A DNA stretch of 64,000 nt from Candidatus Nanopelagicales bacterium (GCA_018402365.1 JAGYJD010000005.1:11123-75122); one strand, 5' to 3'. Shown: positions 13,941 through 63,173, numbered from the stretch's first letter. Notes: generated from the sequence alone by a model not told the origin. Numbers and translations: made by a program.

Positions 13941-13973
13941 AGAGAAGATTACCCCAAAGAATGCGCTAGGGCA

Positions 13974-14975: not shown

Positions 14976-15052
14976 GCTTTCTAGAATGAAGCAAAGACGC
15001 AACTAGCAACAGAAAATTATTAAACCTATGGATAACTTTGCGCTGTGTATAA

Positions 15053-47210: not shown

Positions 47211-47971
47211 CAGACACTTAGGTCGTGACTAGATCTGTAGCCTGAAAAGGCTTTTTCAAAAACATTTCTAAATCCATCTTTCGACCAAGCACTACGTCCT
47301 ACAAATAGGCCATCACATAATTTAAGGGATGCGATTTCTTCTGCATTTTCAATATTTACTGATCCACCATAACAAAGTGGAAAGTTCTTGGTATCTAATT
47401 CAAGTTCATTTAAAACTTCGTTAATAATGGTGAACGATTGTTCAATATAAGAAATACCAGCCGGTGTGCCATTAACACCAATTGACCAAACTGGCTCATA
47501 CCCGATGAGTGCCCAAGGTATTTGTAAATCTTTTAATACTATTAATTGCTTTTTAAATACTTCTCTTCTTTTATTTAAGTTTTCTTGCTGTGTTTTCTCG
47601 CCTATGCAGTAAATTATCTTTAAGTCATTTTCTTGACAATTTTTAATTTGAGCTGCTAAATCTGCTTCAGTTAATCCAAGCGCTCTTCTTTCAGCGTGTC
47701 CTACCATTACTAAGTCAGCATCTAATTCTTTTATTAAATTTGCAGAGATTTCACCAGTGGTGTTTCCCTGGGCACCAGAAATTTCTTGTGGGCCAATCCA
47801 TAACCCTGAGCCAAATGACATTTTCTTTAATGGCACTAAAAGTGGCATGGTGGGTAACACGAATAACTGCACTGCTTGATTAAATTTTGCCAAATGTGAT
47901 GCGATCTCAACAACTTCTTCGTGGAGTTTTCGACCTAAAAGTTGCTTAGTATTGGTACCAAAATAAAACAT
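47210..47971 (-). CDS. triosephosphate-isomerase-family paralog (EryH/LerI-like tetrulose/erythrulose-phosphate isomerase candidate)
   Basis: Catalytic residues are retained (FGTNTK for AGNWK, GHAERR, YEPVWSIG) but the N-terminus is divergent. Last-but-one gene of the ABC operon. Confidence 0.75.
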   Translation of the reverse strand: MFYFGTNTKQLLGRKLHEEVVEIASHLAKFNQAVQLFVLPTMPLLVPLKKMSFGSGLWIGPQEISGAQGNTTGEISANLIKELDADLVMVGHAERRALGLTEADLAAQIKNCQENDLKIIYCIGEKTQQENLNKRREVFKKQLIVLKDLQIPWALIGYEPVWSIGVNGTPAGISYIEQSFTIINEVLNELELDTKNFPLCYGGSVNIENAEEIASLKLCDGLFVGRSAWSKDGFRNVFEKAFSGYRSSHDLSV

Positions 47972-47990
47972 AAACGTTACCGAGTTTCGA

Positions 47991-49076
47991 TTATTTGACT
48001 TTTATCTCGCTCGAGAGCGCTTTTCCGGAACTGTCAAAGAAAGTGATATTTTCTGAGGCAATACTGGTCCACACCGTATCTTTTGCTTCTCTTCCTATGC
48101 TGTGAGAGACGCGAGCCTTAACCAAAAGACCTCCCACTGTGAGATCAAGTAAGTACTGACCTCCTGCGCCAATTGATTTACGAGTGACTGTTGCAGCGCA
48201 AGCGCCTGCTACTTGACTTATTGACACGCTAATGCCCTCGGCTCTTACGCCTAAAATATCAACGCTAGTTGCTTTGGAGCCTAAATCAATTGTTTGAGTA
48301 AACAGCGGGGAAGTTATTTTTGTTCCAGCAACGCTGACGAACTCTGACGGAACAAAGTTCATTCCGGGATTTCCTAAAAACCAACCAGCGAATTGACTAT
48401 TTGGGTTTTCATAGATGACTTTAGGTGAATCGGACTGAGTAATCACTCCATCTTGCATTAAGGCAATTTGGTCAGCCAAAGTCATGGCTTCTGTTTGGTC
48501 GTGGGTTACATAAACAATGGTCTGCTTAAGGCGACTAAATAATTCTTTCATACTGCGCTTCAACTCCATTTTAGAAGTTAAATCAATATTAGTAATTGGT
48601 TCGTCAAATAAAATAATTCGTGGCTGCCGAGCAACTTCACGTCCCACTGCAATTTTTTGACGCGTTCCGTTATCTAGCTCTTCAACTCGTCGTTTTAAAA
48701 CGCTGGTCAAATCAAGAATTTCTGCAACTTCGTCAACACGCTTATCTAATTCATCCTTACTTAGTTTTTCTGACAATAAAGGTAATTCTAGATTTTTTCT
48801 AACACTGGTTCCACGATAAATTACTGGGTATTGAAAGACCATTCCAATATTTCGTCTTCTGGTCGGCACATCAGTGACGTCATGTTCGCCAAAGAATATT
48901 CTTCCGCGAGTTGGAGTCTCTAGCCCAGCTATCATTCTCATCAATGTCGTTTTTCCACAACCTGATGGTCCTAACAAAACCGTTACAGAAGATTTAGGAA
49001 TGGTAAAAGTAATGTCATCCACCGCAGTAAAATTATCAAATTCTTTGGTTACGTTTTCTAAGCGAATGTCATACAT
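47991..49076 (-). CDS. ABC importer ATPase B (consensus Walker/H-loop, degenerate signature), MalK/UgpC-like with C-terminal regulatory domain
   Basis: GPSGCGKTT, FDEP and VTHDQTEA are canonical, but the signature reads LDNGTRQ instead of LSGGQ. Confidence 0.9.
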   Translation of the reverse strand: MYDIRLENVTKEFDNFTAVDDITFTIPKSSVTVLLGPSGCGKTTLMRMIAGLETPTRGRIFFGEHDVTDVPTRRRNIGMVFQYPVIYRGTSVRKNLELPLLSEKLSKDELDKRVDEVAEILDLTSVLKRRVEELDNGTRQKIAVGREVARQPRIILFDEPITNIDLTSKMELKRSMKELFSRLKQTIVYVTHDQTEAMTLADQIALMQDGVITQSDSPKVIYENPNSQFAGWFLGNPGMNFVPSEFVSVAGTKITSPLFTQTIDLGSKATSVDILGVRAEGISVSISQVAGACAATVTRKSIGAGGQYLLDLTVGGLLVKARVSHSIGREAKDTVWTSIASENITFFDSSGKALSSEIKVK

Positions 49077-50154
49077 TTGAAACTCCTTGGCCTATACGCA
49101 TTCCAGTATCTGCATCAAACAAAACCAGTGCCTCGGGATTATAGCTAAGCGAAACAGTTTTAGAATCAAGTTTGGCCAAAGACTCATCATCCGTTCGAGA
49201 AACTACCGTGACCAGATTTATACCATTTACTTCAAAATAAACAGCAAATTCAGACCCTAAATTTTCTAATAATCCCACTTTGGCATCAGTTTTACCTGCT
49301 ACTGAATCAATTGAGATACCTTCAGGTCTTAGGCCTGCCACAACTTTAGAGGCGACCGAATCTACTTTAACCTTGGTGTTGCCTAAGACAGAAGTGAAAG
49401 TTGTACCTGATAATTCACCCGGAAAAATATTTGCTTCAGGAAACCCAAGCGAATTCATGCTCGCTATCGAATTGGGCAAGTCGTAAACCACATCAAGGGA
49501 ATCTTGTTGAACGATCTTTCCATTCGCCAAAATCATCACAGTTCGCGCTAAAGACAGTGCTTCAAGTGGATCTGACGTCATGTAGACAAACGCAACTTTT
49601 AGTTCCTCTTGAGTTTTTCTTAAATCATCTATTAATCTTTCACGCAATTTAAAGTCCAGACCGACCAACGGATCATCCAGCACATAAACATCTGTTGCTT
49701 TCGCTAAACCTCTGGCAATTGCCACCCGCTGCTTTTGTCCACCTGATAACTGCTCGGGTTTTTTAGCTAATAAATCAGTGATTTTAAGCAGTTCGGCAAC
49801 TCGCGCTACTGATTCTGTTTTCGTAGCTTTGCTGGCCTTTGCTAAAACTAATGGATACTCGATGTTTTCTAGAACTGAATAATGCGGGTAAAGTGCGAAA
49901 CTCTGCGGTACATAACCAATATTTCGATCCCCTGCCGCTGCTTGCGTGGCATCTTCACCTCTCACGATGATTGAGCCCGCATCAATCGTTTCTAGCCCCA
50001 TTATGGTTCGCACCAACACCGATTTACCGTTATTTGGCTTTCCACAAATTACAGAGAAATCGTCCATCCCAGCACTAAAAGAAAGGTTATCTAAAACAAC
50101 ATTGCTGCCATAAGACTTTGTTAGTCCCTTGACTTCAAGTGCGTATTCAGCCAT
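49069..50154 (-). CDS. ABC importer ATPase A (degenerate catalytic site, canonical signature)
   Basis: GKPNNGKS Walker A and LSGGQKQRVAIARGL are present, but Walker B reads VLDDP (no catalytic Glu) and the H-loop reads MTSDP (no His). Start set at MAEYALEV (50154) to avoid overlap with the small ORF. Confidence 0.85.
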   Translation of the reverse strand: MAEYALEVKGLTKSYGSNVVLDNLSFSAGMDDFSVICGKPNNGKSVLVRTIMGLETIDAGSIIVRGEDATQAAAGDRNIGYVPQSFALYPHYSVLENIEYPLVLAKASKATKTESVARVAELLKITDLLAKKPEQLSGGQKQRVAIARGLAKATDVYVLDDPLVGLDFKLRERLIDDLRKTQEELKVAFVYMTSDPLEALSLARTVMILANGKIVQQDSLDVVYDLPNSIASMNSLGFPEANIFPGELSGTTFTSVLGNTKVKVDSVASKVVAGLRPEGISIDSVAGKTDAKVGLLENLGSEFAVYFEVNGINLVTVVSRTDDESLAKLDSKTVSLSYNPEALVLFDADTGMRIGQGVSNV

Positions 50155-50170
50155 TTTTATAGTTTCCCCT

Positions 50171-50485
50171 TTAGAAATTTCTCTTAGGTCTGCCAAGCTC
50201 GATCAAATAAGGTGTTACAAAAATTGAAAAGATAAAAATAAGAAAGATTATTAGTAAAATGATCATGGTTTTCTTTAAGGATTTCTTAAAACCCCAATCC
50301 GGATTTATATTACCTAAGGCAATCTGCAATATAACCGTCGCGGACAACAGTCTGAAACCCCATACATATGCTTCATAAGAAACTTGTTGAGCCAACAAAA
50401 ATAGCGAGGTGAGCAACAAATATATATTTAATTTTTGAGCTCTAGCAGCGAAGGGCTCCTTTTGAGTTTTGATTACTTCAGACAT
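50171..50485 (-). CDS. small (104 aa) 3-TM membrane protein encoded inside the ABC operon
   Basis: The ORF exactly fills the gap between permease 2 and ATPase A; its start abuts the permease stop at 50486. It has three hydrophobic segments. Confidence 0.55.
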   Translation of the reverse strand: MSEVIKTQKEPFAARAQKLNIYLLLTSLFLLAQQVSYEAYVWGFRLLSATVILQIALGNINPDWGFKKSLKKTMIILLIIFLIFIFSIFVTPYLIELGRPKRNF

Positions 50486-51340
50486 CTATACTTCACCTCG
50501 GACAGTTCCAAAGGTAAGGCCGACTAATAGATACTTCTGAAACACATAAATTACGACCACTAGCGGTAGTACATAAAGCGTTCCAATTGAAGCCACATAG
50601 GCCCAATCGATTCCACCGCCTTTTGTCGAACCGGTGAATAAACCAACTGGGATACCATAAGTTTTAGCACCACCTAATTGAAAGTTATACAAGAACTCGT
50701 TCCACACAAAGAGGATATTAAATACGAAGGCTGCTACCAAGCCAGGCTTCACCTGAGGCAAGATAACTTTAAACATGATGTGAAAGCGTGACGCTCCGTA
50801 AACTAATCCTGTTTCATCAAATCTTTGTGAGACGCCGTCTAAAAATCCTTTTAGGATCCAAACTGAAAACGGAATGGCAAACATAGTGTAAAAAGCAATT
50901 AAGCCGATGTAGGTGTCCTTTAGTCTCAGTAAGTTAAATAACTGAAAGTAGGGAATTACAAAAGCCGCCGCAGGTACAAATCTGGTGGACAACAATAAAA
51001 ACATCAAAAAGTCTGTTCCCGCTGGTTTAAAGCGAGAGAAAGAGTACGCGGCAAGGTAAGAAACCAAGATCGCCAAGCTCACCGAACCAAATGAATAAAT
51101 AACAGAGTGCGTGAAATAATCTAGCGTGTTATCAAAGCTCAACGCTTCGATAATGTTGTCAAAAGTCGGTCTAAAAAAGAATACCGGCGGAGAAACAACA
51201 ATGCTTCCCTTTGGCTTAAGCGCGGTAGAGACAATCCAAGCAATTGGTAAAAAGAAAAGAAGTGAAATTAACCAAGCGCCAATCGTCGCGAATTTTATGG
51301 GTCCTGATTTACGTTTGGGCTTGAAAGTTACGTCGCTCAT
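50486..51340 (-). CDS. carbohydrate ABC transporter permease (CUT1 type, MalG-like)
   Basis: 6 TM, EAA-loop region (GASRFHIMFKVILPQVKPG). 284 aa. Confidence 0.9.
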   Translation of the reverse strand: MSDVTFKPKRKSGPIKFATIGAWLISLLFFLPIAWIVSTALKPKGSIVVSPPVFFFRPTFDNIIEALSFDNTLDYFTHSVIYSFGSVSLAILVSYLAAYSFSRFKPAGTDFLMFLLLSTRFVPAAAFVIPYFQLFNLLRLKDTYIGLIAFYTMFAIPFSVWILKGFLDGVSQRFDETGLVYGASRFHIMFKVILPQVKPGLVAAFVFNILFVWNEFLYNFQLGGAKTYGIPVGLFTGSTKGGGIDWAYVASIGTLYVLPLVVVIYVFQKYLLVGLTFGTVRGEV

Positions 51341-51341
51341 T

Positions 51342-52286
51342 TTATTCCTCAGCCTTCTTTCTCGCGTTCAACACATATAAATAGATTGCAGTCAAAGCGA
51401 TTGCTACGAATAGCAAGAACACTGAAACTGCCGAAGAATAACCTAATTTGAATGATTTGAAGGCAAACCTGTATAAGGAAACCGCAATTAACTCTGTTCG
51501 ATCCCCAGGCCCTCCCCCCGTCATTACATATGCCAAGTCCATCGTCTTGAAGGCATCAATAATTCTTAACAAAAGTCCTAAACCTAAAATGAACTTTGCG
51601 TGTGGCCAAATTACAGTTCTAATTAATCGAGTTAAAGGTAAGCGATCAACCCGAGCAGCTTCTAATTCAGCTTTAGGAACAGAGCCTAAAGCCGCCAGGG
51701 TCATCAAAGTCATAAATGGCGTCCACATCCAAGTGTCCACAAACACCAGTGTCGGAAACGCTAAAGTTGTGCTGCTAAGAGTATCAATTCTATCAAAACC
51801 AAAGGTCGAAACAAAAAAATTCAAAACACCTAAGGTTGGGTCAAGAATGAACTTCCAGAACAAAGAAGTTGCGATTGGTGTAACCACCATTGGTGTAAAA
51901 AGAAGAGTTAGCGCTAAGCGACGACCTGGCATTTTGTCATTTTTCCAAAAGAGTACACCTATTAAAATTCCTAAGATAGTTTGCAAAATTACTGCGCTCA
52001 ACACGAAAATTAAAGTTCGTGAGACAGCTCCCGCCAATGCGCGATTTGCTAGGAAGTCTCGAAAATTATCAAAGCCTACAAACCGCGGATTTTGTGCCGA
52101 AGTTAGTGTGTAATCGTAAAAAGCTAAACCAAACATCCAAACTGTTGGCAGCACACTCATTAAAATAAAAAAGAATAAAACTGGGGCTAAAAGACCCCAA
52201 GATAACCAAGTCTTCTTTGATTCTAGCTTTTTAGCCTTGGGAACGTCCTTGATGGATTGTTCAAGTGTCTCAACGCTTTTAGCCAT
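51342..52286 (-). CDS. carbohydrate ABC transporter permease (CUT1 type, MalF-like)
   Basis: 6 TM, EAARVDRLPLTRLIRTVIWP EAA motif. 314 aa. Confidence 0.9.
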   Translation of the reverse strand: MAKSVETLEQSIKDVPKAKKLESKKTWLSWGLLAPVLFFFILMSVLPTVWMFGLAFYDYTLTSAQNPRFVGFDNFRDFLANRALAGAVSRTLIFVLSAVILQTILGILIGVLFWKNDKMPGRRLALTLLFTPMVVTPIATSLFWKFILDPTLGVLNFFVSTFGFDRIDTLSSTTLAFPTLVFVDTWMWTPFMTLMTLAALGSVPKAELEAARVDRLPLTRLIRTVIWPHAKFILGLGLLLRIIDAFKTMDLAYVMTGGGPGDRTELIAVSLYRFAFKSFKLGYSSAVSVFLLFVAIALTAIYLYVLNARKKAEE

Positions 52287-52400
52287 TGCCGTCCTTTAAT
52301 TAATTTTTCTAAAAACATCTAACGTTGGCGTAATCATAAGAGATGTGTTGGCATCCCAGTCAACTGGGACACCAACACATTACTCTCTTCTTTTAAACTC

Positions 52401-53939
52401 TTAGAGTCTTAAAGAGTCGACATTCTCCGGTGGAGGTGTCGTGGTCCGACCAGCATTGAAGAGAATTTGCTGTTGTTTTGCTGCAGCGTATTCCAAAGCG
52501 TCTTTAGCCGACGCAACGGTTCCACTCGCATAACCATTGAATGCTTCTTGCTGTACTGCAAGCATTTCAGCATATTCTGGCAAATGCCAGAAGTCTTGTG
52601 AGCGACCCTCTTCAAGCATGTATAAGAAGGGCTCTACATAGTGAGCAACTGATAAATACTCAGGATTTGCAGCACCTTCTTTGCTCCATGGCAAGCCACC
52701 GTTGTTTTTAATGAACTTGTCTTGAGTATCTTTTGTGTACCACCACTTGAGAACATCGATTGCCACTCTCATTTGGTCGTCATTGTTGAATGCGTTGATT
52801 ACCCATGGCTGGCCACCCATTGCACCAATTAGTTTTCCATCCCATTTAGGAAGTGGGATCGAGATGACCATGTCTGGCTTGACAACTGCGTCAGCGCCAC
52901 CCATAAATGCACCCACTGCTAACCATTGCCAGGCAGAAAAGCATTTTCCACCGTTGAAAAGGTCAAGCAGAGAACCGATACCAAAAGAAGCTGCATCTGC
53001 TGGCTGATACTTCATCAGACCAACAAACTCTTCCATTGCTGCGGCGTTGATATCAGAATTTAGGATTCCGTAAACATCTGAAGTTTCTGGATCCCAAATT
53101 TTTCCGCCTGTTGAATAAGCGAATGGGTAGTAGGCACAGCTAAAGAAGTCATACTCTTTCGAGTACATCAAAGCAGTACCGAACATCTCTTCATCTGGAC
53201 GATGGAAGAAATCGATGATTTCAACTAGAGCTGAATATTCAATTTCTACATATTCTTCATAAGTAGTTGGAAGATCTTTTCCAGTTGCTGCCTTGAATGC
53301 AGCTTGTTCTGCTGGATCCTCGAGCATGTCCTTACGCATGAATACTCCCTGAGTGTCAGGCATTTGTGGGAAGCCCCAACGAATTCCTGAACCATCTGGG
53401 TAAACCTGGTAAGTGTCTCTAACCAAACTAGAGAAAGGTTCGATGTCTAGTTCTGGGTTGGCTGCGAAGACATCATCTGCCTTTACAATCCATCCTGGTT
53501 CTGACAAAGCACCTAACCACTGCGAGTCGACGACCATAAGATTGTACTCTGATGATCCGGCGGCAAGAGTTGGTGAAACTTTTTGGAACAGTTCACCGAA
53601 ACCTGCTTCGACGAAAGTTATATCGTTAACCGTATAACCATAGTTTTCTAAGGCATAGGCCTGAAAATCTGCCCATTGAGTTGTTGGCGCAGCGCTGGGT
53701 GGCCAACCTCCAATACGCGAGTATGCAAAGTCAATGGTCTTACCTTGCATATTGGTTGCATTGCTTCCATACAACGGAGAGTCTGCGGCTGGGGCTTCTG
53801 CTGAGCCACCTCCGCTTGTTGATCCCCCATCATCACTGCAAGCTGCCAGCAAACCTGCCGCTGGAATTGCAGCGCCTGCTATCGCCCCTGCTTTAAGTAG
53901 CCGGCGACGGTCAAGCTTCATTTTTGTGTCTTCTGACAA
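52401..53939 (-). CDS. large extracellular solute-binding lipoprotein with Tat-type signal
   Basis: RRRLLKAGAIAGAAIPAAGLLAAC (twin-Arg plus lipobox) and a Gly/Ser linker. 512 aa, larger than typical CUT1 binding proteins. Alternative start at MKLDRRR (53921). Confidence 0.85.
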   Translation of the reverse strand: MSEDTKMKLDRRRLLKAGAIAGAAIPAAGLLAACSDDGGSTSGGGSAEAPAADSPLYGSNATNMQGKTIDFAYSRIGGWPPSAAPTTQWADFQAYALENYGYTVNDITFVEAGFGELFQKVSPTLAAGSSEYNLMVVDSQWLGALSEPGWIVKADDVFAANPELDIEPFSSLVRDTYQVYPDGSGIRWGFPQMPDTQGVFMRKDMLEDPAEQAAFKAATGKDLPTTYEEYVEIEYSALVEIIDFFHRPDEEMFGTALMYSKEYDFFSCAYYPFAYSTGGKIWDPETSDVYGILNSDINAAAMEEFVGLMKYQPADAASFGIGSLLDLFNGGKCFSAWQWLAVGAFMGGADAVVKPDMVISIPLPKWDGKLIGAMGGQPWVINAFNNDDQMRVAIDVLKWWYTKDTQDKFIKNNGGLPWSKEGAANPEYLSVAHYVEPFLYMLEEGRSQDFWHLPEYAEMLAVQQEAFNGYASGTVASAKDALEYAAAKQQQILFNAGRTTTPPPENVDSLRL

Positions 53940-54026
53940 GTGAACTCCTTCTCAAAAAGGATCGGCCCGAGATAGGTCGGTCTCACGACTAATAATGTGA
54001 CATAGGTTGCTATCTAGTCAAGACTA

Positions 54027-54054: not shown

Positions 54055-54120
54055 ACATTGCTAAAATCGAAATCGGCAGTAGCAAACTGCCTGGTGCAAA
54101 TAGTGAGGACTGTGACTGGA

Positions 54121-54597
54121 GTGACTAAGTACCGAATTGTGGTTGGATCTGATTTTGCCGGATTTGAATTAAAAGAATTATTAAAAAAATACTTACAAAA
54201 TGACTCTCGAGTTTCTGAGGTAATTGAAATCGGTGTTAATTCTTTAGAAGACAAGACTGATTATCCAAATATTGGATTTGCTTTGGGTGAAAAAATTCAA
54301 GAACAAGCAGCTGATCGTGGTTTATTAGTTTGTGGGACCGGAATTGGAATGGCAATCTCGGCAAACAAGGTGCCGGGAATTCGTGCCACTACTGTTCATG
54401 ATCCCTACTCCCTAGAGAGAGCAGTCTTGAGTAATAATTGTCAAGTTATTACAATGGGTGCTCGAGTCATTGCGCCAGAATTAGCCCTAAGTTTGATAAA
54501 GCCTTGGCTTGATTATGTTTTTGATGAGCAAGGACCCAGCGCACCAAAAGTAAAGCAAATTAATCATCTAGAAAAGGAAGCCAAAAATAATGAGTAA
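54121..54597 (+). CDS. rpiB: ribose-5-phosphate isomerase B / RpiB-LacAB family sugar-phosphate isomerase
   Basis: RIVVGSDFAGFELKE, LVCGTGIGMAISANK and the catalytic region. Start placed at GTG 54121; the track ORF from 54058 adds a non-conserved 21-aa extension and would precede the predicted TSS. Confidence 0.85.
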   Translation: MTKYRIVVGSDFAGFELKELLKKYLQNDSRVSEVIEIGVNSLEDKTDYPNIGFALGEKIQEQAADRGLLVCGTGIGMAISANKVPGIRATTVHDPYSLERAVLSNNCQVITMGARVIAPELALSLIKPWLDYVFDEQGPSAPKVKQINHLEKEAKNNE

Positions 54598-55102
54598 AGG
54601 CACAATTGCATTTCCTATCGCTGATGGGGTTGAGGATTTGGAATATCACGTGACAAGAATGCGGCTAGAAGAAGATGGCTTCAAAGTGGTAAGTGCCGGA
54701 GTTGATAAAAAACAAATAATTGGCAAGAACGGTTTAAAAATTGATATCGACGTTTTGATTTCAGATTTGAAAGCAAGTGAACTTCAGGGCTTAGTGCTAG
54801 CTGGTGGATGGGCGCCAGACAAGTTAAGAAGATATGAGAATGTAATTAATTTAATAAAAGAAATTAATGCACAAAATAAGGTGATAGGAATTATTTGTCA
54901 TGGCGGCTCACTCGCAGTGTCAGCAGATATTCTCAAAGGTAAAAAGTCGACTGGCTCATTGGGTATCAAAGACGACCTAGTGAATGCTGGGGCAACTTGG
55001 GTAGATGAAGCTGCATTTAGCGAGGGCAACTTGGTCTGGGGTCGAGTAGTGGCCGATATTCCTGATTTTTGCCGTGAACTGGTTAAAACCCTTAATCAGT
55101 AA
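54590..55102 (+). CDS. DJ-1/PfpI family protein (class I glutamine-amidotransferase-like; deglycase/glyoxalase III candidate)
   Basis: Nucleophile elbow IGIICHGG and LAGGWAP. 170 aa. 8-bp overlap with rpiB. Confidence 0.85.
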   Translation: MSKGTIAFPIADGVEDLEYHVTRMRLEEDGFKVVSAGVDKKQIIGKNGLKIDIDVLISDLKASELQGLVLAGGWAPDKLRRYENVINLIKEINAQNKVIGIICHGGSLAVSADILKGKKSTGSLGIKDDLVNAGATWVDEAAFSEGNLVWGRVVADIPDFCRELVKTLNQ

Positions 55103-55156: not shown

Positions 55157-56659
55157 ATGAATACTAAAAGGATTGGGACCAGCAAAAAAATGAGTTTAAC
55201 GCAAAATGAAACTCGATCTAACTTTTTAATAAATCAGATGGCTCGAGAACTCGGCGCGATTGTGGGCCACGAAAACGTAACTCAGGATAAAGCAAAACGA
55301 ATTGAGCAAGCCAGCGACTGGTCTTGGATGAGTAAATATTTGTTATCAAAAGACGAAGACTTGCCAATAGCTGACTTAGTAGTTTCACCCAAAACAACTA
55401 AAGAGGTTTCTGAAGTTGTGGCGCTTGCTAACGACTACTTAATGCCGATTATTCCGCGCGGTGGCGGCTCGGGTACACAATCAGGAACTTTTGCACTTTA
55501 CGGCGGTATCGCTTTAGATCTTAAATCTTTAAACAAAATAATTGACATCGACGAGAACTCAATGATTGTTACTGTCGAAGCTGGACTTGATGGTTCTGAA
55601 TTAGAAAAAGTTTTAAATGCTAGAGGTTTAACTGTGCCCCATTACCCGGGCTCTCATTTTTTTGGTGCAACTATTGGTGGATGCTTAGCTGCCAGAGGTT
55701 CAGGAGTTGTTTCAACAAAATACGGTAAGGCTGAAGATTTAGTACTACAAATTGAAGCAGTGATGGCAAATGGAAAAGTCATTGAGACTCTTCCGGTACC
55801 AAGTCATGCCTCAGGTCCAGGAATTATTCAAACTCTGGTCGGTAGTGAGGGAACTCTGGGAGTGATCACTAAAGCAGCCATGAGATTAGAGCACCTTCCA
55901 GAATCTAGAGTTTTTTTGTCATACGGATTTAAAGATGTCAATACTGGTATCGAAGCCGCCAGAGCCATTATGACTAAGAGATGGAAACCAGCAGTTATCA
56001 GACTTTATGACGAAGCAGATACTCATAAACTTTCTGAATTTTTAAACCTTGATGTACAAGGGGTCCTGATGGTAATTATGTGTGATGGCGCCAAGTCATT
56101 AACTGATTTGGAATCTAAAGAAATTGATTTAATTTGCACCGCAGTAGGTGGTAAACCACACGGACCGCAAGTAGGTCAGAACTGGTGGGACGGAAAGTAT
56201 GAGCCGTTTAAACATGGCAATATTCCTGCTCCACCAATGATTTATGGCACCACAGATACTTGTGCCAGATTCAATGATTTACCCGCAATTTACGCCGCCA
56301 AAAAAGCAGTGGTAGAAAAACAATTTGCTCACCACAAAGCTAGATACACCGCTCATTTTTCTCATTGGTTTCCATGGGGTGGAATGATTTACGACCGTTT
56401 TTATGTTGATAATCCCCCATCAGATATTGACGAAGCTATGAAATTGCATGACGACATATGGAACGCAGCAATCGATGCTTCTTTGAAAAATGGAGGGACC
56501 CTTAACGAACACCATGGTGTTGGTTTAAAGCTTGGTCGCTTCATGAAGACACAACACGGCTCAGCCTGGGAATTTTTGCTGAGTCTAAAAAAAGCGTGGG
56601 ATCCAAACGGCATCATGAATCCAGGAAAACTTGGGTTTGGTCCACCGGGTTCTGCGTAA
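55157..56659 (+). CDS. FAD-linked oxidase (VAO/GlcD/alkyl-DHAP-synthase-like) flavoenzyme
   Basis: FAD_binding_4 motifs (PRGGGSGTQSG, VEAGL), GTLGVITKA and C-terminal HHGVGLKL ... DPNGIMNPGK. Alternative start at 55190. Confidence 0.85.
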   Translation: MNTKRIGTSKKMSLTQNETRSNFLINQMARELGAIVGHENVTQDKAKRIEQASDWSWMSKYLLSKDEDLPIADLVVSPKTTKEVSEVVALANDYLMPIIPRGGGSGTQSGTFALYGGIALDLKSLNKIIDIDENSMIVTVEAGLDGSELEKVLNARGLTVPHYPGSHFFGATIGGCLAARGSGVVSTKYGKAEDLVLQIEAVMANGKVIETLPVPSHASGPGIIQTLVGSEGTLGVITKAAMRLEHLPESRVFLSYGFKDVNTGIEAARAIMTKRWKPAVIRLYDEADTHKLSEFLNLDVQGVLMVIMCDGAKSLTDLESKEIDLICTAVGGKPHGPQVGQNWWDGKYEPFKHGNIPAPPMIYGTTDTCARFNDLPAIYAAKKAVVEKQFAHHKARYTAHFSHWFPWGGMIYDRFYVDNPPSDIDEAMKLHDDIWNAAIDASLKNGGTLNEHHGVGLKLGRFMKTQHGSAWEFLLSLKKAWDPNGIMNPGKLGFGPPGSA

Positions 56660-56706: not shown

Positions 56707-57591
56707 ATGCATTTATCTATGCACAACTGGATGCGTGCCGAGCCATTGGAAACAACCATCGCCCGACTAGCTAAATACGGTTACAAGAGTATTGAAATCA
56801 GTGGAGAACCAGAAAAATATCCATCTGCCGATACTCGCGCTTTATTAAAAAAATACGACCTAAAGTGTTGGGGTTCTGTGACTCTAATGTTAGGTGAAAG
56901 AAATCTAGTTGCTAAAGATGAAGGAAAACGTGCTGAGAGTGTTCAGTATGTAAAAGATTGCATCACTATGGTTAAAGAACTTGATGGAACAGAAATGACA
57001 ATTGTTCCTGCCACGGTAGGTAAAATTACTCCAGATGCAACTCCAGAAGAAGAATGGAGTTGGGCAGTTGATGGCATGAAAGATATCTATGCCCATTCCC
57101 AAGCAGCAGGCGTGAAATTAGCAATCGAACCCTTAAACAGATTCGAAACTTATTTCATTACCCGATGTGAACAAGCTCTAGCTTTAGCTGAAGCAACTGG
57201 TCCAGATTGTGGAGTATGTCTAGACGCATTCCACATCAACATTGAAGAAGAAGATCTATACGCTGCAATTCGTTTAGCTGGTAAAAAGCTAAATGACTTT
57301 CACGTCGCAGATAATAATCGGATGCCAGCCGGACACGGTGATTATGACTGGAAGAAAGTTGTCGCCACTTTGAAAGAAATTGGTTATGACGGTGCGCTAA
57401 CTGCTGAATTTGTTGCTCCAGTTGATAGGACTCCAGCAAACAGATTCCCAAATGCTCTGGATATGAATCCACCAGGAATCGATCCAGATCAATTGAAGTT
57501 CATCATTGACCACGGCTCATCTATTCTTACCGAAGAATTTTATGACTGGTTGGTTAAAGAGAACGCCGAGACATTACTACCTCTTATTTAA
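56707..57591 (+). CDS. xylose-isomerase-like TIM-barrel sugar(-phosphate) isomerase/epimerase
   Basis: IEPLNRFET, LDAFHINIEE and HVADNNR...GxG..DW...L..IGYDG metal-ligand pattern (AP_endonuc_2 fold). Confidence 0.85.
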   Translation: MHLSMHNWMRAEPLETTIARLAKYGYKSIEISGEPEKYPSADTRALLKKYDLKCWGSVTLMLGERNLVAKDEGKRAESVQYVKDCITMVKELDGTEMTIVPATVGKITPDATPEEEWSWAVDGMKDIYAHSQAAGVKLAIEPLNRFETYFITRCEQALALAEATGPDCGVCLDAFHINIEEEDLYAAIRLAGKKLNDFHVADNNRMPAGHGDYDWKKVVATLKEIGYDGALTAEFVAPVDRTPANRFPNALDMNPPGIDPDQLKFIIDHGSSILTEEFYDWLVKENAETLLPLI

Positions 57592-57627: not shown

Positions 57628-58851
57628 TTGGTGAATGACTTAGTGCTAGTAATTGGCACACTTGACACCAAAGGTCCTGAGGTTGCTTATTTAAGAGACA
57701 AATTAAAAGAGTATGGACTCAAGCCCTACGTAATTGATGTAGGAATTCTTGGTGAACCCATAGGCATCACCCCTGATTTTTCTAAGGCTCAACTTGCCCA
57801 ATTCGGTGGCACCACAATCGAAAAAGTTCAGAATGCTGGCTCTCGCGGAGCTGCCGTTGAATTGATGCGCGAATTTGTTATAAAAAAAGTTGAAGAGATG
57901 GTGTCTAAAGAAGAGGTGATTGGTGGCATCGGGATAGGAGGCGCTGAGGGCGGGGTAATGACAGCCGCGGCCTTAATGGTGTTACCGATTGGAGCTCCCA
58001 AAATTGTGATCTCGCCGATTGCTTCAGGTAAGCATGAATTTGCCCCACTGGTTGGCACCACAGACATGATGACAATGCATTCCATTGTTGACATTTTGGG
58101 ATTAAACGACATCTCAAAAACTATTTTTGATAACGCTGCTGCTGCGGTTTACGGAATGATTGAAAAAGGGCATCAACTAACAAAACCAAAACCTGGCACA
58201 AAAGCAGTTGCCGTGACAATGCTGGGCAATACCAATACTGCAATCACCGCGATGCAGCCCTTAATGAAAGAAGCCGGATACGAATTAGTGGTATTTCATG
58301 CCAATGGCGTGGGTGGTGCTGCCATGGAGGAGCTGGCAACCGCCGGACAGTTCGTTGGGATTATTGATTTCACAACGAATGAAATGGCTGCAAATATGTT
58401 TGGCGGCATTCATGTGGCAGATCAAAACAGATTAACAGTTGCCGGCAGTTTGGGAATTCCACAAGTTGTGGTTCCGGGATGCGTTGATTTTATAGTTTTT
58501 CATGCAAATACTGTTCCAGAAAATCTTAAAGCTAGACCAATTTACAACCACAATCCAGAGTATTGGCTAGTCAGGCTCACTGGTGAAGAAATGGAAAAGT
58601 TAGGTAAAAAGTTTGCTGAATCTTTAAACACTTCACTTGGTGAAGTGAAGGTGGTAATTCCCACTCAAGGTATCTCTATTCCTAATAAAAAAGGTGGTAT
58701 TTTTTTTGATCCTGCAGCTGATAAAAAATTTATGGATCAAATGCAACAAACCTTAAAACCTGATATCGAAGTCACAAGCTTTGATCTGCATGTCAACGAT
58801 GCTGAATTTGGTAAGGCAGTCGGTAAACTTTTTATCGATATGATGAAATGA
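57628..58851 (+). CDS. UPF0261 / Tm-1-like ATP-binding domain protein
   Basis: VLVIGTLDTKGPEVAYLRDKL start, MLGNTNT, FHANGVGG and PGCVDF blocks as I remember family PF06792. AGGAGA RBS favours GTG 57631 over the track's TTG 57628. Confidence 0.7.
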   Translation: MVNDLVLVIGTLDTKGPEVAYLRDKLKEYGLKPYVIDVGILGEPIGITPDFSKAQLAQFGGTTIEKVQNAGSRGAAVELMREFVIKKVEEMVSKEEVIGGIGIGGAEGGVMTAAALMVLPIGAPKIVISPIASGKHEFAPLVGTTDMMTMHSIVDILGLNDISKTIFDNAAAAVYGMIEKGHQLTKPKPGTKAVAVTMLGNTNTAITAMQPLMKEAGYELVVFHANGVGGAAMEELATAGQFVGIIDFTTNEMAANMFGGIHVADQNRLTVAGSLGIPQVVVPGCVDFIVFHANTVPENLKARPIYNHNPEYWLVRLTGEEMEKLGKKFAESLNTSLGEVKVVIPTQGISIPNKKGGIFFDPAADKKFMDQMQQTLKPDIEVTSFDLHVNDAEFGKAVGKLFIDMMK

Positions 58852-58860
58852 GGAAAACAA

Positions 58861-59775
58861 ATGGCTAAACACCCAATCAGAGAATTTCAACGGCTCACCT
58901 CAGGTGACGATGCCTTTCGGGCAAAGTTTCGCTCTTGGGATATGACGGAATTGTCTTACGTTGATATTCGTGAATATCTAAAAGAGAAAGACACCGTGCT
59001 GGTGCCAATGGCGTCCACCGAACAACACGGCCCGCACTTACCCTTGTACACCGACACAATTACTGCCATTGAAGTTGCAGAGCGAGTTTCTGAGGCAATC
59101 GGAGTTTTTCATACCCCACCAATTTGGACTGGCTACTCACCTCAGCACATGCACTTGCCCGGTGAAGGTCGCGGCACCATCACAATCAAGGCCTCAACTT
59201 TAAATGCCTTGATGTACGACGTGGCTCGTTCATTAATTCATCATGGTTTCAACCGAATTATTTTTATTAACGGTCATGGCTCAAACACCAAAGTCGTTGA
59301 TCCGGTATTAAGAAAATTACGTTACGAAACTGGCGCACTAATCGGATTTGTGCGGCCTTACATGGAGCGTTACGTGGGTGTATTAGAAGGTCTTATGGAA
59401 AACCCACCAGAAGAAACTCCCGGTTGGCATTCCTCCGAATTAGAAACCTCCCAAGACATGGCTTATGACCCTGATTTAGTGAGAATGGAACGGGCTTATC
59501 CCGAGAAGGCTCACATCCCCAGCTTTTTACCAGCGAGCTTTCAAAAAAATGATGGGATGCCGGATGTTGAATTTGAAGGGTATCAATATTTTACCTTTCC
59601 AATGGATCACCATGAATTCGTAGAATCAGGCACCATCGGAAATCCCATGAGAGCCACTATGGAAAAAGGCGAAGAAGCGTTTCGTCGTCTTTCCGAGCAC
59701 ACAGCAAAAGCTATATTAGAATTAACAAAAGTTCCGGTGACAGTCACCAACAGAGAGTTTGTTGATCGCGTTTAA
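58861..59775 (+). CDS. creatininase-family metal-dependent amidohydrolase
   Basis: VLVPMASTEQHGPHLPLYTD, INGHGSN and SELETS motifs of creatinine amidohydrolase/ArfB/MftE-type enzymes. 304 aa, longer than the usual size of about 260. Confidence 0.8.
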   Translation: MAKHPIREFQRLTSGDDAFRAKFRSWDMTELSYVDIREYLKEKDTVLVPMASTEQHGPHLPLYTDTITAIEVAERVSEAIGVFHTPPIWTGYSPQHMHLPGEGRGTITIKASTLNALMYDVARSLIHHGFNRIIFINGHGSNTKVVDPVLRKLRYETGALIGFVRPYMERYVGVLEGLMENPPEETPGWHSSELETSQDMAYDPDLVRMERAYPEKAHIPSFLPASFQKNDGMPDVEFEGYQYFTFPMDHHEFVESGTIGNPMRATMEKGEEAFRRLSEHTAKAILELTKVPVTVTNREFVDRV

Positions 59776-59777
59776 AA

Positions 59778-60452
59778 ATGAAAGCAGAAAACGATAAGTC
59801 GCAGGCATCATCTTTAGCAGTTGATGCCTACGATTATTTAGTTGAGGCTATTACTTCTTTTAAACTCCCTACCAATACCGCCATCAGCGAAAATAAATTA
59901 GCATCGCAATTGGGAATTTCTCGCACCCCCATTAGACAGGCTTTGCAACGACTTGAATCAGAGGGCTTGATTACTAAAAGTGACTCTTCTCGATTTAGTG
60001 TTGCCCTAGTTACCCCTAAGCAAGTTGAAGAAGCTTGTGACTTACTACAAATTATTGATACCTATCTTTTTACTAGAGCTGCTAAAAATTTGAATAAAAA
60101 AAGTAGTGATGAATTAATTGCAATAACTCAAGAAATGATTCGGGCTGCTAAAAATGATGACCGCGACAAATGGAGTCAGGCCGATACAAAATTTCATAAT
60201 CTAATAATTAAAGCTGCCGATAACCGCATGGTCTCAGATTTAGCAATTGTTACTCGAAGAAAGATTCAAAGATTTTGGACCAAATCTGCTGTTTATGAAA
60301 ATCGGCTAAGTTCGTGTTCGAAAGAACATGAGGTATTAGCCCGCGTAATTGTCAAGAAAGATTTTGAGGCAATTGAACCAGCCGTGATAGATCACATGTC
60401 ACATATGCGCTCAAGTATTTTACGAATCATCGAAACTGCGGCAGTCTTTTAA
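59778..60452 (+). CDS. GntR-family (FadR/FCD subfamily) transcriptional regulator
   Basis: ISENKLASQLGISRTPIRQALQRLESEGLI winged HTH plus an all-helical FCD C-domain (HxxI...H). Starts 2 nt after the creatininase stop. Confidence 0.9.
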   Translation: MKAENDKSQASSLAVDAYDYLVEAITSFKLPTNTAISENKLASQLGISRTPIRQALQRLESEGLITKSDSSRFSVALVTPKQVEEACDLLQIIDTYLFTRAAKNLNKKSSDELIAITQEMIRAAKNDDRDKWSQADTKFHNLIIKAADNRMVSDLAIVTRRKIQRFWTKSAVYENRLSSCSKEHEVLARVIVKKDFEAIEPAVIDHMSHMRSSILRIIETAAVF

Positions 60453-60510: not shown

Positions 60511-61377
60511 TTAGTATCTGGCCTTCATAAATTTAATTGCTTTTTCAGCTAGATCATGGGAGTCATCCCATAGATTTCGCCAAATACGCAAGGCATTGGA
60601 TAACGCTGGGTCCACCACCACTGATGAAAATGATTCAAAAGTAATGGGGCCTGAGTAATTGATGGTCTTTAAGGCTCCAAAAAATGAATCAAAGTCCACA
60701 TTGCCAGTACCTAAATAACCGCGATGACTCTCGCCAATATGAACATAGCCAATGCGATCTGCTGCTGCCAGCACTCCCTCAACCATGCCGTCTTCTTCTA
60801 TATTCATGTGATAAGTATCTAAATGTAGGTAAACGTTGGGCTTATCTACCTCTTCTAAATAAAGCAAGCCTTCTTTGGCTGTATTCATTAGGTTACTTTC
60901 GTATCGATTCACGATTTCAATATTTAGATTAATTCCTTTGTCCGCGGCATAATCAGCCATACGCTTCATAGCCCCGACTGAATTGGCACGATTCTCTTTT
61001 GTGGCAGGTTGCTCATACGGCTGCAAACTTGAGGCAAAGGGACCATCAAATTCAACTCCGCCGATAGCAGCTAGTTTGTCTATCGCCTGTCGCGCTAGCT
61101 CTTCTCCGGCTTTAACAATTGACTTATCAGCACTCGAAATATCGGTACTGGCGGTTAAAACAAAACAGCCCGCAGCTTTTAAATTAAATTCCGCAAGTAA
61201 ATCTTTGGTCATTGCTGCATCAATTTTTTCGGGTTCCGCAATCAAGATTTCAATCAGATCATAACCCGCTTTATGAGCGCTGCTGGCAGCAAAGCGGGCA
61301 CTCTTTGGTGACCAATCCCCTGCCCAAACAAGCGAGTGCCCTCCAAATTCTAAAGGTTTCTTATCTGAAATTGACAT
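60511..61377 (-). CDS. ketose 3-epimerase family enzyme (D-tagatose/D-psicose 3-epimerase-like TIM barrel)
   Basis: IEIVNRYE, LDTYHMNIEE and HIGESHRGYLGTG...F..L..INYSG match the DTE/DPE metal and catalytic Glu motifs. Confidence 0.8.
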   Translation of the reverse strand: MSISDKKPLEFGGHSLVWAGDWSPKSARFAASSAHKAGYDLIEILIAEPEKIDAAMTKDLLAEFNLKAAGCFVLTASTDISSADKSIVKAGEELARQAIDKLAAIGGVEFDGPFASSLQPYEQPATKENRANSVGAMKRMADYAADKGINLNIEIVNRYESNLMNTAKEGLLYLEEVDKPNVYLHLDTYHMNIEEDGMVEGVLAAADRIGYVHIGESHRGYLGTGNVDFDSFFGALKTINYSGPITFESFSSVVVDPALSNALRIWRNLWDDSHDLAEKAIKFMKARY

Positions 61378-61480: not shown

Positions 61481-62356
61481 ATGAAAGGAATATCTGTGGG
61501 TGTTGTTTCTTTGAATGACATCTTGAAACCTGCCTTTGAAGAACGTTATGGTGTACCGGCGATAAATATTTTTAACGATCTAACTCTCGAAGCAGTACTT
61601 GCTGGTGCTGTTAAAGCTAAATCCCCCTTAATAGTACAAACCTCAGTCAAAACAGTAAAAAGTATTGGCGTTGAAGTTCTGGCAAACATGTGGCAAGCAA
61701 TGACAAAAGGCATCGAAGTTCCGGTCGCGCTGCATTTAGATCATTGCCCAAATCGTGATGTGATTACTGCCTGCTTAGAGCATGGGTGGAATTCAGTTTT
61801 GTTTGATGCCTCAGAATTACCAGTTGAAGAAAATCAAAGACAAACCATCGAAGTAGTAAAACAAGCTCGCGCTTTTGGCGCTTCGGTTGAGGGTGAAATT
61901 GAAGCAATAACTGGCGTTGAGGACGGACACGGATCAGACTCAATTGCGAAAAGAGAATCTTTAGAAACTTCTCTGACTTTTATTGAAGAAACTGGCATTG
62001 ATGTCTTTGCTCCCTCAATTGGCAATGCTCATGGCTCCTACAAGTCAACGCCTGTCATTGATTTTGATCGGGTCTCTGACATAGTTTCAAAAAAATCTAT
62101 CCCCATTGCACTTCACGGTGGAAGCGGATTAACTTTGGAGCAATTTCAAGAATTAATTTCACGCGGTTGTGCAAAAATTAATATATCAACGGCGCTCAAA
62201 GAGCTCTATATGAAATCTACTCTTTCTTTTCTTGTTGAAACAGAGAAAAAAAATAAGTGGGATCCCCCCTCATTATTTGCGGCCACTCGTGAGGACATTA
62301 TTGAGCTGGTGGTTGATTTAACTGAACAATTTGGTAGCAAAGACAAGGTTGGGTAG
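61481..62356 (+). CDS. class II ketose-bisphosphate aldolase family (FbaA/GatY/KbaY-like)
   Basis: HLDH, EGEIE, GNAHGSYK and LHGGSG zinc and substrate motifs. 291 aa. Confidence 0.85.
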   Translation: MKGISVGVVSLNDILKPAFEERYGVPAINIFNDLTLEAVLAGAVKAKSPLIVQTSVKTVKSIGVEVLANMWQAMTKGIEVPVALHLDHCPNRDVITACLEHGWNSVLFDASELPVEENQRQTIEVVKQARAFGASVEGEIEAITGVEDGHGSDSIAKRESLETSLTFIEETGIDVFAPSIGNAHGSYKSTPVIDFDRVSDIVSKKSIPIALHGGSGLTLEQFQELISRGCAKINISTALKELYMKSTLSFLVETEKKNKWDPPSLFAATREDIIELVVDLTEQFGSKDKVG

Positions 62357-62365: not shown

Positions 62366-63067
62366 ATGCCCGCTTTGATTTTTGACTGTGATGGAGTACT
62401 GGCTGATACTGAAAAAGATGGTCACCTGCGCGCGTTTAATCAAACTTTTGAGCACTTTCACTTGCCGGTGCACTGGAGTGTTGTGGACTATGCAGAAAAA
62501 TTAAAAATTGGTGGAGGAAAAGAGAGACTAAAGAGTCTTTTAACTCCAGAATTTATTAGCAAGGCAGAACTCTCGCCCGATCCCAAAGCGCAAGCTGCGG
62601 CTGTGGCCGATTGGCATCGCTATAAAACTGACATCTATACAGACTTAGTCGAAAGTGGCGTTATGCCACCGCGGGCTGGAATTGCCAGAATTGTTAAAGA
62701 GGCACATGCGGCAGGCTGGAAACTTGCGGTCGCCTCCACTTCACACGCAAAGTCGGTCCAAGCTGTGCTTACTCATGCGGTGGGGGCTGAACTTGCTGCT
62801 GACTTTGCGGTTTTTGCGGGCGACATTGTGCCCCACAAAAAACCAGCACCAGATATTTACCGACTAGCGCTTGCCGAATTAGCGGTTTCGACTGCCCAGG
62901 CGATAGTGATTGAAGATAGTCAAAATGGTTTAGCGGCAGCCACTGCTGCTGGGCTTCGCACAGTTGTCACCATAAGTAGCTTCACCTCAGCAGAAAATTT
63001 TGCTGCTGCTTCACTCGTAGTCAGTTGCCTAGGTGACTTAGCTACCGGGCAACCGGCAAGCTGCTAG
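62366..63067 (+). CDS. HAD-superfamily phosphatase (CbbY/beta-phosphoglucomutase-like subfamily IA)
   Basis: LIFDCDGVLADTE motif I, AVASTS motif II, K...EDSxNG motif III/IV. Confidence 0.8.
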   Translation: MPALIFDCDGVLADTEKDGHLRAFNQTFEHFHLPVHWSVVDYAEKLKIGGGKERLKSLLTPEFISKAELSPDPKAQAAAVADWHRYKTDIYTDLVESGVMPPRAGIARIVKEAHAAGWKLAVASTSHAKSVQAVLTHAVGAELAADFAVFAGDIVPHKKPAPDIYRLALAELAVSTAQAIVIEDSQNGLAAATAAGLRTVVTISSFTSAENFAAASLVVSCLGDLATGQPASC

Positions 63068-63173
63068 AAAATCCAGCTAACCTAACCTTAGGTGAAGAAT
63101 AACGCCTGCTGATTTGAAAAACATTTTAGAACTACCCGCAATAAATTAAAAACCAATCATAAGGAGAGTAAAA

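Follow-up and report, generated by a model that had tools for sequence, protein, structure and literature searches.

A gene for a UPF0261 (Tm-1-like) protein and a gene for a long creatininase-family hydrolase lie side by side in a 64,000 nucleotide stretch of DNA from Candidatus Nanopelagicales bacterium (GCA_018402365.1, JAGYJD010000005.1:11123-75122; this whole stretch is called the window here). We found that the pair is the invariant core of a widespread four- to five-gene module, which consists of a GlcD-like FAD (flavin adenine dinucleotide) oxidase, a TIM (triose-phosphate isomerase) barrel protein of the ketose-3-epimerase type, the UPF0261 protein, the creatininase-family protein and often a GntR regulator. 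Judging from the sequences, we read it with moderate confidence as a module for the catabolism of a keto-sugar, sugar acid or cyclitol, in which UPF0261 would act as a kinase while the creatininase-like protein would open a ring or carry out some other metal-dependent hydrolysis. No description of the pairing or the module was found in the searchable literature.

Conservation of the gene pair and its module

The host is a freshwater actinobacterium of the acI type, and the window has a GC content of about 43%. All module genes are encoded on the plus strand: the FAD-linked oxidase of the GlcD/D-lactate dehydrogenase type (55157..56659, PF01565 and PF02913; called at 489 amino acids in sister contigs), the xylose isomerase-like (XI-like) TIM barrel of the ketose-3-epimerase type (56707..57591, PF01261 with 149 bits), the Tm-1-like two-domain ATP-binding protein and putative kinase UPF0261 (57628..58851, PF06792, PF23189 and NF002674), the metal-dependent hydrolase with its 304 amino acids (58861..59775, PF02633) and the GntR/FCD-family regulator, the last gene of the operon (59778..60452, PF00392 and PF07729). 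The TIM barrel and UPF0261 genes are 36 nucleotides apart, UPF0261 and creatininase genes 9, and creatininase and GntR genes 2. An earlier note on this DNA, made from the sequence alone, had given the open reading frames and these gaps exactly, and its assignments to PF06792 and PF02633 are borne out by Pfam scores far above the cut-offs.

A scan of one genome per GTDB species gave at least 577 confirmed matches, of which the best 80 loci were analysed with our own hidden Markov models. Their UPF0261 proteins are 53-89% identical to the window protein, and the loci belong to Actinomycetota, Chloroflexota, Rhodothermales and other Bacteroidota, Gemmatimonadota, Acidobacteriota and Poribacteria (seven phylum-level groups; eight for all loci examined). 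The hydrolase gene was found beside the UPF0261 gene in every one of the 80 loci. In 78 of them the two are immediate neighbours, and the hydrolase gene lies downstream in 79 loci, with a single case of the opposite order. Such an adjacency is far beyond chance. The FAD oxidase was present in 73 of 80 loci, and in all 62 in which at least 4.5 kb of upstream sequence was available. The TIM barrel was found in 68 loci and a GntR gene in 17; in the actinobacterial loci and some others the latter follows the creatininase gene.

The block of FAD oxidase, TIM barrel, UPF0261 and creatininase genes was also present in contigs from another acI lineage, from Microbacterium, from Arthrobacter sp. MYb227 and from a metagenome-assembled genome of Longimicrobiales, which were found by a 55-60% identical UPF0261 protein or an approximately 80% identical hydrolase. 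A GntR gene comes directly after the creatininase gene in the actinobacterial contigs, and the UPF0261 and creatininase genes overlap by 4 nucleotides or abut in those of Microbacterium, Arthrobacter and Longimicrobiales. On megaplasmids of Thermus thermophilus the order of the two genes is reversed, but they are still adjacent (hydrolase 47% and UPF0261 33% identical to the window proteins). A class II aldolase/adducin gene and a TTT carboxylate transporter come after the pair there, and a divergent operon encodes a GntR regulator, a zinc-dependent alcohol dehydrogenase, a CBS protein and an XI-like TIM barrel. With 80 of 80 loci and Thermus, the pairing that the earlier note had proposed is real and not confined to one genome. 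Its view that the pairing itself is the novelty was too narrow, since the pair is the core of a larger module with the FAD oxidase and the TIM barrel.

The module is found in abundant freshwater acI Actinobacteria, soil Microbacteriaceae, Chloroflexota, Rhodothermales, Gemmatimonadota and Thermus. For the discovery of enzyme function it is a concrete target, and Microbacterium, Arthrobacter sp. MYb227 and Thermus thermophilus are available as cultured hosts. Its elucidation would probably bring to light a carbon source of importance to streamlined freshwater bacteria, and could help to explain how UPF0261 kinases work with partner enzymes.

Some observations on single loci were made along the way. 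In T. thermophilus AA1-1 (L088, NZ_AP024927.1, 9904-11250) a transposase has inserted into the UPF0261 gene of the pair and truncated it, whereas strain TF19 (L089) has it intact; at least some strains can therefore do without the module. In Chloroflexota and Rhodothermales the genes for the FAD oxidase and the TIM barrel are separated by one for a conserved protein of 368 amino acids (for instance L036:5809-6912), which occurs in 52 of 80 loci but not in the window. Its N-terminal CxxCxxC motif is invariant and a fourth Cys is present; the protein gave no Pfam or NCBIfam match, while its Longimicrobiales homologue gave weak Fer4_8/Fer4_17 matches. Owing to the conserved CxxCxxC...C motif, it is probably an iron-sulfur electron-transfer partner of the oxidase. 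Locus L009 (CAMATO010000013.1) is labelled Bifidobacterium breve but carries an acI-type operon with 87% protein identity to the window and a low-GC actinobacterial gene content; the label is probably a taxonomic mis-assignment.

The UPF0261 protein and its clade

Both domains of the family are recognised in the window protein, the N-terminal one by PF06792 (163.1 bits) and the C-terminal one by PF23189 (232.4 bits; cut-off 27 each), and the NCBIfam model NF002674 scores 400.4 bits (cut-off 335). The reading frame as taken from 57628 opens with TTG. The true start is probably the GTG at 57631, which gives 406 amino acids, since P0001 (99% identical) and the genes called in L090 have this length, and an AGGAG lies 6 nucleotides upstream.

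UPF0261 is a large family with members in bacteria, archaea, fungi and plants. To our knowledge a single UPF0261 enzyme has been characterised, the kinase MarK in 2025, which makes the statement in the earlier note that the family has no assigned biochemical function outdated. MarK (Saro_1862 of Novosphingobium aromaticivorans) is a stand-alone UPF0261 homodimer with a crystal structure (9MPY), and it phosphorylates acetovanillone and related phenols, converting ATP to ADP (PMC12624787). Its His219 hydrogen-bonds the acceptor oxygen, and the change E16K raised its rate about 1600-fold; this Lys, the counterpart of K15 in the window protein, is critical for the activity and corresponds to K20 of Tm-1, where it contacts ATP (PMC12624787).

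The window protein is 31% identical to MarK (9MPY) and 36% identical to Tm-1. An AlphaFold2 model (pLDDT 78.4) had its best Foldseek matches in the PDB to 9MPY and 3WRX/3WRY/3WRW (E 3e-29 to 5e-27, TM 0.63-0.70), and the structure prediction suggested in the earlier note has in this way returned the fold of MarK and Tm-1. Like MarK (E 3e-29, TM 0.68), the window protein is a stand-alone two-domain UPF0261 without a PF09370 partner. Its ATP-site motif D13-T14-K15 aligns to D14-T15-K16 of MarK and is invariant in the clade; all full-length sequences in the comparison have D-T-K, a region outside the Tm-1 fragment that was used. The Lys introduced into MarK by E16K is native here (K15). The acceptor His is retained (His224, MarK His219), as are the stacking His (H308, MarK H304) and the hydrophobic face of Phe and Ile (Val). 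The acceptor pocket as a whole (G200, N201, H224, F288, V290, H308 and P352) is nevertheless not the acetovanillone pocket: Thr196 of MarK is replaced by Asn201 and the ketone-binding His348 by Pro352. The genetic context differs as well. MarK belongs to a biotin-dependent carboxylase pathway for acetovanillone (compare L099), whereas the window has the oxidase-epimerase-creatininase module, and neither the annotated part of the window (44-64 kb) nor the related loci showed genes for a biotin-dependent carboxylase. Almost certainly, the window protein and MarK act on different substrates.

By analogy, a kinase role for UPF0261 in this clade is reasonable because of the MarK precedent (PMC12624787). 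This part of the earlier note, which had named the protein as a candidate kinase, can be kept; its reasoning that a kinase is missing because dhaK is broken did not hold (see below). It might also be possible that UPF0261 is non-catalytic, an ATP-binding regulatory or scaffolding subunit that controls the hydrolase in the way Tm-1 binds its partner via ATP. Tm-1 does act by ATP-bridged protein binding, and wild-type MarK is very slow without E16K and has its sites 25 Å apart. We consider such a role improbable, however, as the clade natively has the Lys that is behind the 1600-fold activation of MarK, together with an invariant acceptor His and a small-molecule pocket whose signature is specific for the partner.

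This signature was read at the positions that line acetovanillone in MarK (195/196/219/283/285/304/348). It is G-N-H-F-V-H-P in the creatininase-linked clade, including the window protein, and G-N-H-Y-V-H-Y in the Thermus pair. MarK and its Sphingobium homologue have G-T-H-F-I-H-H, and the proteins linked to PEP (phosphoenolpyruvate) hydrolase have G-V-H-M-N-H-L, as does Tm-1. UPF0261 paralogues in module-bearing loci are 33-47% identical to the module protein and closer to Tm-1. On the sequence level the creatininase-linked UPF0261 proteins are a separate paralogous clade in which the pocket signature tracks the partner.

The usual partner of UPF0261 is the PF09370 protein, as the earlier note had stated: co-occurrence and co-evolution of the two have been reported (PMC5028733), and among nine contexts sampled from 344 plasmid records with UPF0261 homologues of at most 38% identity, six adjoin a PEP-hydrolase-family gene, usually together with a cupin. 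One further context is a MarK-like gene beside biotin carboxylase genes (Sphingobium, L099), and the other two are different again. A creatininase neighbour was found for none of these nine distant UPF0261 genes, nor was a UPF0261 neighbour found for approximately 32% identical creatininases in a haloarchaeon and in Thermomicrobium. In the window, as stated before, PF09370 is indeed absent: a tblastn search with a PEP_hydrolase protein of 424 bits (E<=1e-4) found no homologue, and the positive control worked. To call the protein uncoupled from its partner is misleading all the same, since it belongs to a separate clade and a PEP-hydrolase gene lies within 8 kb of the module in 10 of the 80 loci. 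Thus, the two UPF0261 systems co-occur. In L021, L046 and L080 (in the latter at about 12990-15200) the PEP hydrolase is located next to a second UPF0261 paralogue, and in L040 (3-791) next to a cupin. Because both systems share these four clusters, the creatininase system is no replacement for the canonical one, and in Chloroflexota and Acidobacteriota the two may serve the same wider pathway.

Compared with the canonical pair of UPF0261 and PF09370 (PEP hydrolase-like or 'TBST') and with the Tm-1 fusion, the module protein has the family, the fold, D-T-K and one tight, specific partner in common. The partner there is a TIM barrel, usually with a cupin, whereas here it is a metallohydrolase of the creatininase fold, and the UPF0261 proteins are 33-47% identical. 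The module represents a third and sharply bounded context class of UPF0261, with an obligatory creatininase partner, a pocket signature of its own and fixed companion enzymes.

The hydrolase, the companion enzymes and the possible pathway

The window hydrolase matches PF02633 with 207.4 bits (cut-off 31.3) over residues 30-285. It has 304 amino acids compared to 260 in solved creatininases, in agreement with the estimate in the earlier note of about 40 residues more than typical. The extra length consists of an N-terminal extension and an insertion at approximately 205-260, both highly conserved in the clade. The scores for the specialised models of the family all stay below the cut-offs: 123.5 bits (235) for the creatininase equivalog TIGR04448, 97.9 (245) for the 3-dehydro-scyllo-inosose hydrolase IolN (NF041098) and 104.2 (172) for the mycofactocin peptidase MftE (TIGR03964). 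The related loci and the annotated part of the window (44-64 kb) showed no mft genes.

In common with creatinine amidohydrolase, IolN and MftE, the protein has PF02633 and the equivalents of the Glu, His, Asp and His ligands. E54, H56, D65, H139 and H190 align with the metal ligands and the catalytic His of creatininase and are invariant; we take the numbering of the latter to be E34, H36, D45, H120, E122 and H178, which is consistent with the alignment. Different are the 40-45 additional residues with their clade-specific conserved segments and the replacement of Glu122 by Ser141 (in GHGSN). A conserved E193 in HSSELETS could stand in for the lost Glu122; the AlphaFold2 model is too weak to judge the geometry. 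A further difference is the UPF0261 neighbour, obligatory here and missing in the distant family members that were sampled.

Of all module proteins, the hydrolase is by far the most constrained. Across phyla it is 77-81% identical, compared to 55-59% for UPF0261, 69-78% for the TIM barrel and 46-67% for the oxidase, and 43% of its positions are at least 98% conserved in 65 sequences, including positions in the N-terminal extension and the 205-260 insertion. Because of this conservation and the retained ligand equivalents, the hydrolase gives the impression of a competent enzyme under strong constraint.

Few chemistries are known for the creatininase fold; the reaction of creatininase itself is the opening of a five-membered cyclic amide. 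ATP-dependent 5-oxoprolinase, hydantoinase and caprolactamase provide the logic for an explanation in which the two proteins are one two-component, ATP-dependent ring-opening hydrolase: UPF0261 would phosphorylate an acidic oxygen of the enol, lactim or phenol type, and the creatininase-like enzyme, perhaps in a physical complex with it, would hydrolyse the activated ring of a lactam, cyclic imide, enolised diketone or reductone. The two would form a new two-enzyme system in which metal-dependent ring cleavage is coupled to the phosphorylation of an enolic or ring oxygen by ATP. The strict adjacency whatever the gene order and the gene overlap in several genomes fit with this explanation, as does the extreme conservation of the hydrolase, in which the clade-specific N-terminal and internal segments could form an interface. 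MarK phosphorylates an acidic phenolic oxygen, F288, V290 and H308 are common to MarK and not to the PEP-hydrolase-linked clade, and the creatininase reaction itself is a ring opening. On the other hand, no UPF0261-creatininase fusion (about 715 amino acids) was found among the 150 best 50%-cluster hydrolase representatives, oxidase and epimerase are equally fixed in the module, which fits a linear pathway, and the context is rich in carbohydrate genes without genes for nitrogen handling. We regard such a coupling as possible but rather unlikely. If true, it would mean a very widespread new catabolic route for a common compound of the keto-sugar, cyclitol or reductone type, the first physiological non-aromatic function of UPF0261 and a fourth chemistry for the creatininase fold.

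The companion enzymes point to carbohydrates. The best PDB matches of the TIM barrel are D-psicose and D-tagatose 3-epimerases and TM0416 (79 bits). It scores 129 bits with the psicose epimerase model and 124 bits with IolO, both below the cut-offs, and 48 bits with OtnI (cut-off 325). The FAD oxidase matches D-lactate dehydrogenase (120 bits), glycolate oxidase (107 bits) and, over the FAD domain, alkyl-dihydroxyacetone phosphate synthase. The regulators are of the GntR/FCD type, which is characteristic of regulons for organic acids and sugar acids. When the 298 same-strand non-core genes that lie within 7 kb of the pair in the related loci were sorted by Pfam, they included 39 XI-like TIM barrels, 28 Gfo/Idh/MocA oxidoreductases, 13 FGGY kinases, 13 LarA-like 2-hydroxyacid racemases, 13 TauE, 9 ThuA, 9 AFOR, 8 PfkB kinases and 7 DeoC-type aldolases. 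In the window itself, tblastn with a working positive control found no homologues of PEP hydrolase, FGGY, PfkB, Gfo/Idh/MocA, LarA, cupin or DeoC. The class II aldolase/adducin protein of Thermus has its best matches to phosphosugar aldolases, epimerases and 3-oxo-tetronate 4-phosphate decarboxylase (OtnC-like, 109 bits, cut-off 250), and UPF0261 is the only kinase candidate in that operon. Together these two observations imply a phosphorylated intermediate. Overall, the context points to a carbohydrate-derived substrate.

In the Microbacteriaceae and acI-Phila loci (L004/L005, 11735-18715; L001-L003, 12990-19857) a LivJ-type (Peripla_BP_6) ABC transporter follows the module. The same loci encode a second XI-like TIM barrel and a Gfo/Idh/MocA enzyme that resembles levoglucosan dehydrogenase (336 bits, cut-off 650).

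One route with such an inventory is the breakdown of inositol-type cyclitols. In the IolM/IolN/IolO pathway of Thermotoga a creatininase-family enzyme hydrolyses diketo-inositol. In a variant of this pathway the window hydrolase would be a diketo-cyclitol C-C hydrolase and the TIM barrel a keto-gluconate epimerase; the FAD oxidase, or in Thermus the zinc-dependent alcohol dehydrogenase, would make the second keto group, and UPF0261 would phosphorylate the keto-acid before aldol cleavage. The hydrolase matches the IolN model with 98-100 bits, a profile of comparable length (307 positions). For the TIM barrel the matches are IolO (124 bits) and TM0416 (79 bits), and for the Thermus dehydrogenase IolM (225 bits). 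Gfo/Idh/MocA (IolG-like) proteins and extra XI-like TIM barrels (IolE/IolI-like) are the commonest neighbours, and Chloroflexota loci contain PfkB and DeoC/Cgl0159-like aldolase genes. Still, the scores are well below the curated cut-offs of the Iol models (245, 300 and 450), the creatininase and MftE models score the hydrolase equally well, a Gfo/Idh/MocA gene was not found in the window, and the cupin genes in the loci belong to the separate triad of UPF0261, PEP hydrolase and cupin. A cyclitol pathway of this kind thus appears unlikely.

Another known system is comparable in its logic only. The '3-oxo' route for acid sugars uses a 2-dehydrogenase, the TIM-barrel isomerase OtnI, the kinase OtnK (DUF1537) and the decarboxylase OtnC, and pentonates on this route end in erythrulose-4-phosphate, which requires the isomerases LerI/DerI (PMC12994016). 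Here, too, the genes would allow oxidation of a 2-hydroxy acid, rearrangement by an XI-like TIM barrel, phosphorylation by ATP and cleavage or decarboxylation to triose, tetrose or pentose phosphates. The window has a DerI-like RpiB and a gene of the triose-phosphate isomerase family; an OtnC-family gene is found only in the Thermus operon. However, the Otn kinase belongs to DUF1537 and not to UPF0261, its dehydrogenase is NAD-linked and not an FAD-linked GlcD type, the module TIM barrel is nearer to ketose 3-epimerases, and the Otn pathway is without a creatininase-family enzyme.

In the catabolic module that we favour, the substrate would be a derivative of a keto-sugar, sugar acid, sugar lactone or cyclitol. 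The oxidase would create a keto group and the epimerase would rearrange it. UPF0261 would phosphorylate a hydroxyl of a pathway intermediate (ATP to ADP), with the D-T-K motif at the ATP site and His224 at the acceptor. The adjacent step would be taken by the creatininase-like binuclear-metal hydrolase, most likely as a ring opening (of a lactone, a cyclic amide or, as with IolN, a 1,3-diketone) or as hydrolysis of an activated intermediate. The phosphorylated product would then be cleaved by a nearby lineage-specific aldolase or decarboxylase, and in the window the products would pass to the RpiB-like and triose-phosphate isomerase-like isomerases. While the family memberships, the conservation of pair and module, the clade-specific pocket and the carbohydrate context are observed, we infer the kinase activity, the order of the steps, the type of bond hydrolysed and the substrate.

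Several observations weigh against this pathway. Transporters next to the module are lineage-specific: a CUT1 sugar ABC transporter in the window, a LivJ-type ABC transporter in Microbacteriaceae, TTT in Thermus and MFS in Longimicrobiales. Because of this variation the input compound may differ between lineages or be an intermediate. The Microbacterium binding protein has weak similarity, which is not decisive, to the Peripla_BP_6-type proteins 4EY3 and 4EVQ, presumably binders of lignin-derived aromatic acids. The Phe, the Val/Ile and the stacking His in common with MarK could indicate a flat aromatic or enolic substrate and not an open-chain sugar acid. At least 13 related loci have a canonical FGGY or PfkB sugar kinase beside the module, which also speaks against the missing-kinase reasoning of the earlier note; since these genes adjoin the module, UPF0261 is not needed as 'the' sugar kinase in some Chloroflexota. 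A lactonase role would leave unexplained the conservation of the hydrolase, which exceeds that of all other module proteins. The AlphaFold2 model of the hydrolase, made with 28 close homologues, has a pLDDT of 56 and is unreliable for residues 166-269; it was used for family-level fold matching only, with creatininases as the best structural matches. Finally, the ATP and acceptor sites of MarK are about 25 Å apart (PMC12624787).

Neighbouring genes in the window

Downstream of the operon lie a second XI-like TIM barrel gene (60511..61377, minus strand), a class II aldolase gene (61481..62356), a truncated HAD phosphatase gene (62366..63067) and a dhaK/dak pseudogene (from 63174), assigned by Pfam and translation. 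All four are neighbours outside the module. Translation of dhaK revealed an in-frame stop and a frameshift, as the earlier note had seen in part, and the note had named UPF0261 a candidate for the missing kinase. On this reading UPF0261 would replace dhaK as the sugar kinase of this one operon, and the pairing would be a local innovation. The disrupted dhaK would be in line with this, as would the result that a kinase of the FGGY, PfkB or ROK type was not found near the operon. The sister contigs L090 and L091 (98.2% DNA identity over 10 kb) contradict it: their Dak1-Dak2 is intact (569 amino acids), and their HAD protein has 261 amino acids compared to 233 in the window. Five single-base insertions or deletions, clustered in about 330 bp (approximately 63020-63345; compare L090, 15390-15750), truncate the HAD gene and break Dak1-Dak2 in the window. 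Several of them sit in short homopolymer runs, and the cluster is either a recent local pseudogenisation or an assembly or sequencing error. Moreover, L009 (87% identity) keeps the operon from the binding protein gene to the GntR gene and has unrelated genes downstream. The missing cluster in L009 shows that aldolase, HAD and dak genes are a neighbour and not a part of the module, which is present without dhaK in many phyla (seven phylum-level groups). A replacement of dhaK is therefore very improbable, and the missing-kinase argument falls with it.

Upstream of the module the operon starts with an RpiB/LacAB-family sugar-phosphate isomerase gene (54058..54597, probable start 54121, plus strand; PF02502 with 153 bits), followed by a DJ-1/PfpI gene (54590..55102, plus strand; PF01965 with 139.5 bits). 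The RpiB protein scores 152.6 bits with the model of D-erythrulose-4-phosphate isomerase (DerI), which is below the cut-off. These two genes are lineage-specific: outside the closest acI relatives (L008-L011 and L090-L092) they are not retained. A scan for promoters and terminators within the operon gave nothing above the shuffled expectation, which fits a single operon but is no proof of one. In the divergent promoter region, the palindrome TAGTCAAGACTA (54015-54026, pattern TnGTnnnnACnA) was considered as a candidate GntR operator. It overlaps a -35-like hexamer and was not found again in the 98% identical L090 or in other loci; it is probably not a conserved operator.

The divergent operon (47210..53939, minus strand; Pfam and NCBIfam) encodes a CUT1-type sugar ABC transporter with a 512-amino-acid binding protein, two permeases, a 104-amino-acid open reading frame, two ATPases and a terminal gene of the triose-phosphate isomerase family, in an arrangement that is identical in the sister contigs. 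Its binding protein has weak similarity to the trehalose/maltose-binding protein, which is not decisive for the substrate. The two ATPase genes (361 and 375 amino acids) are unusual for CUT1 systems. The 104-amino-acid reading frame (50171-50485, minus strand), between permease and ATPase genes, gave no Pfam or NCBIfam match and is called in the same way in the sister contigs. Just downstream of this transporter operon, a D-Ala-D-Ala-ligase-family gene (45488-46567, plus strand) converges with a Sua5/YciO/YrdC-family gene (46560-47210, minus strand), the two overlapping by 8 nucleotides.

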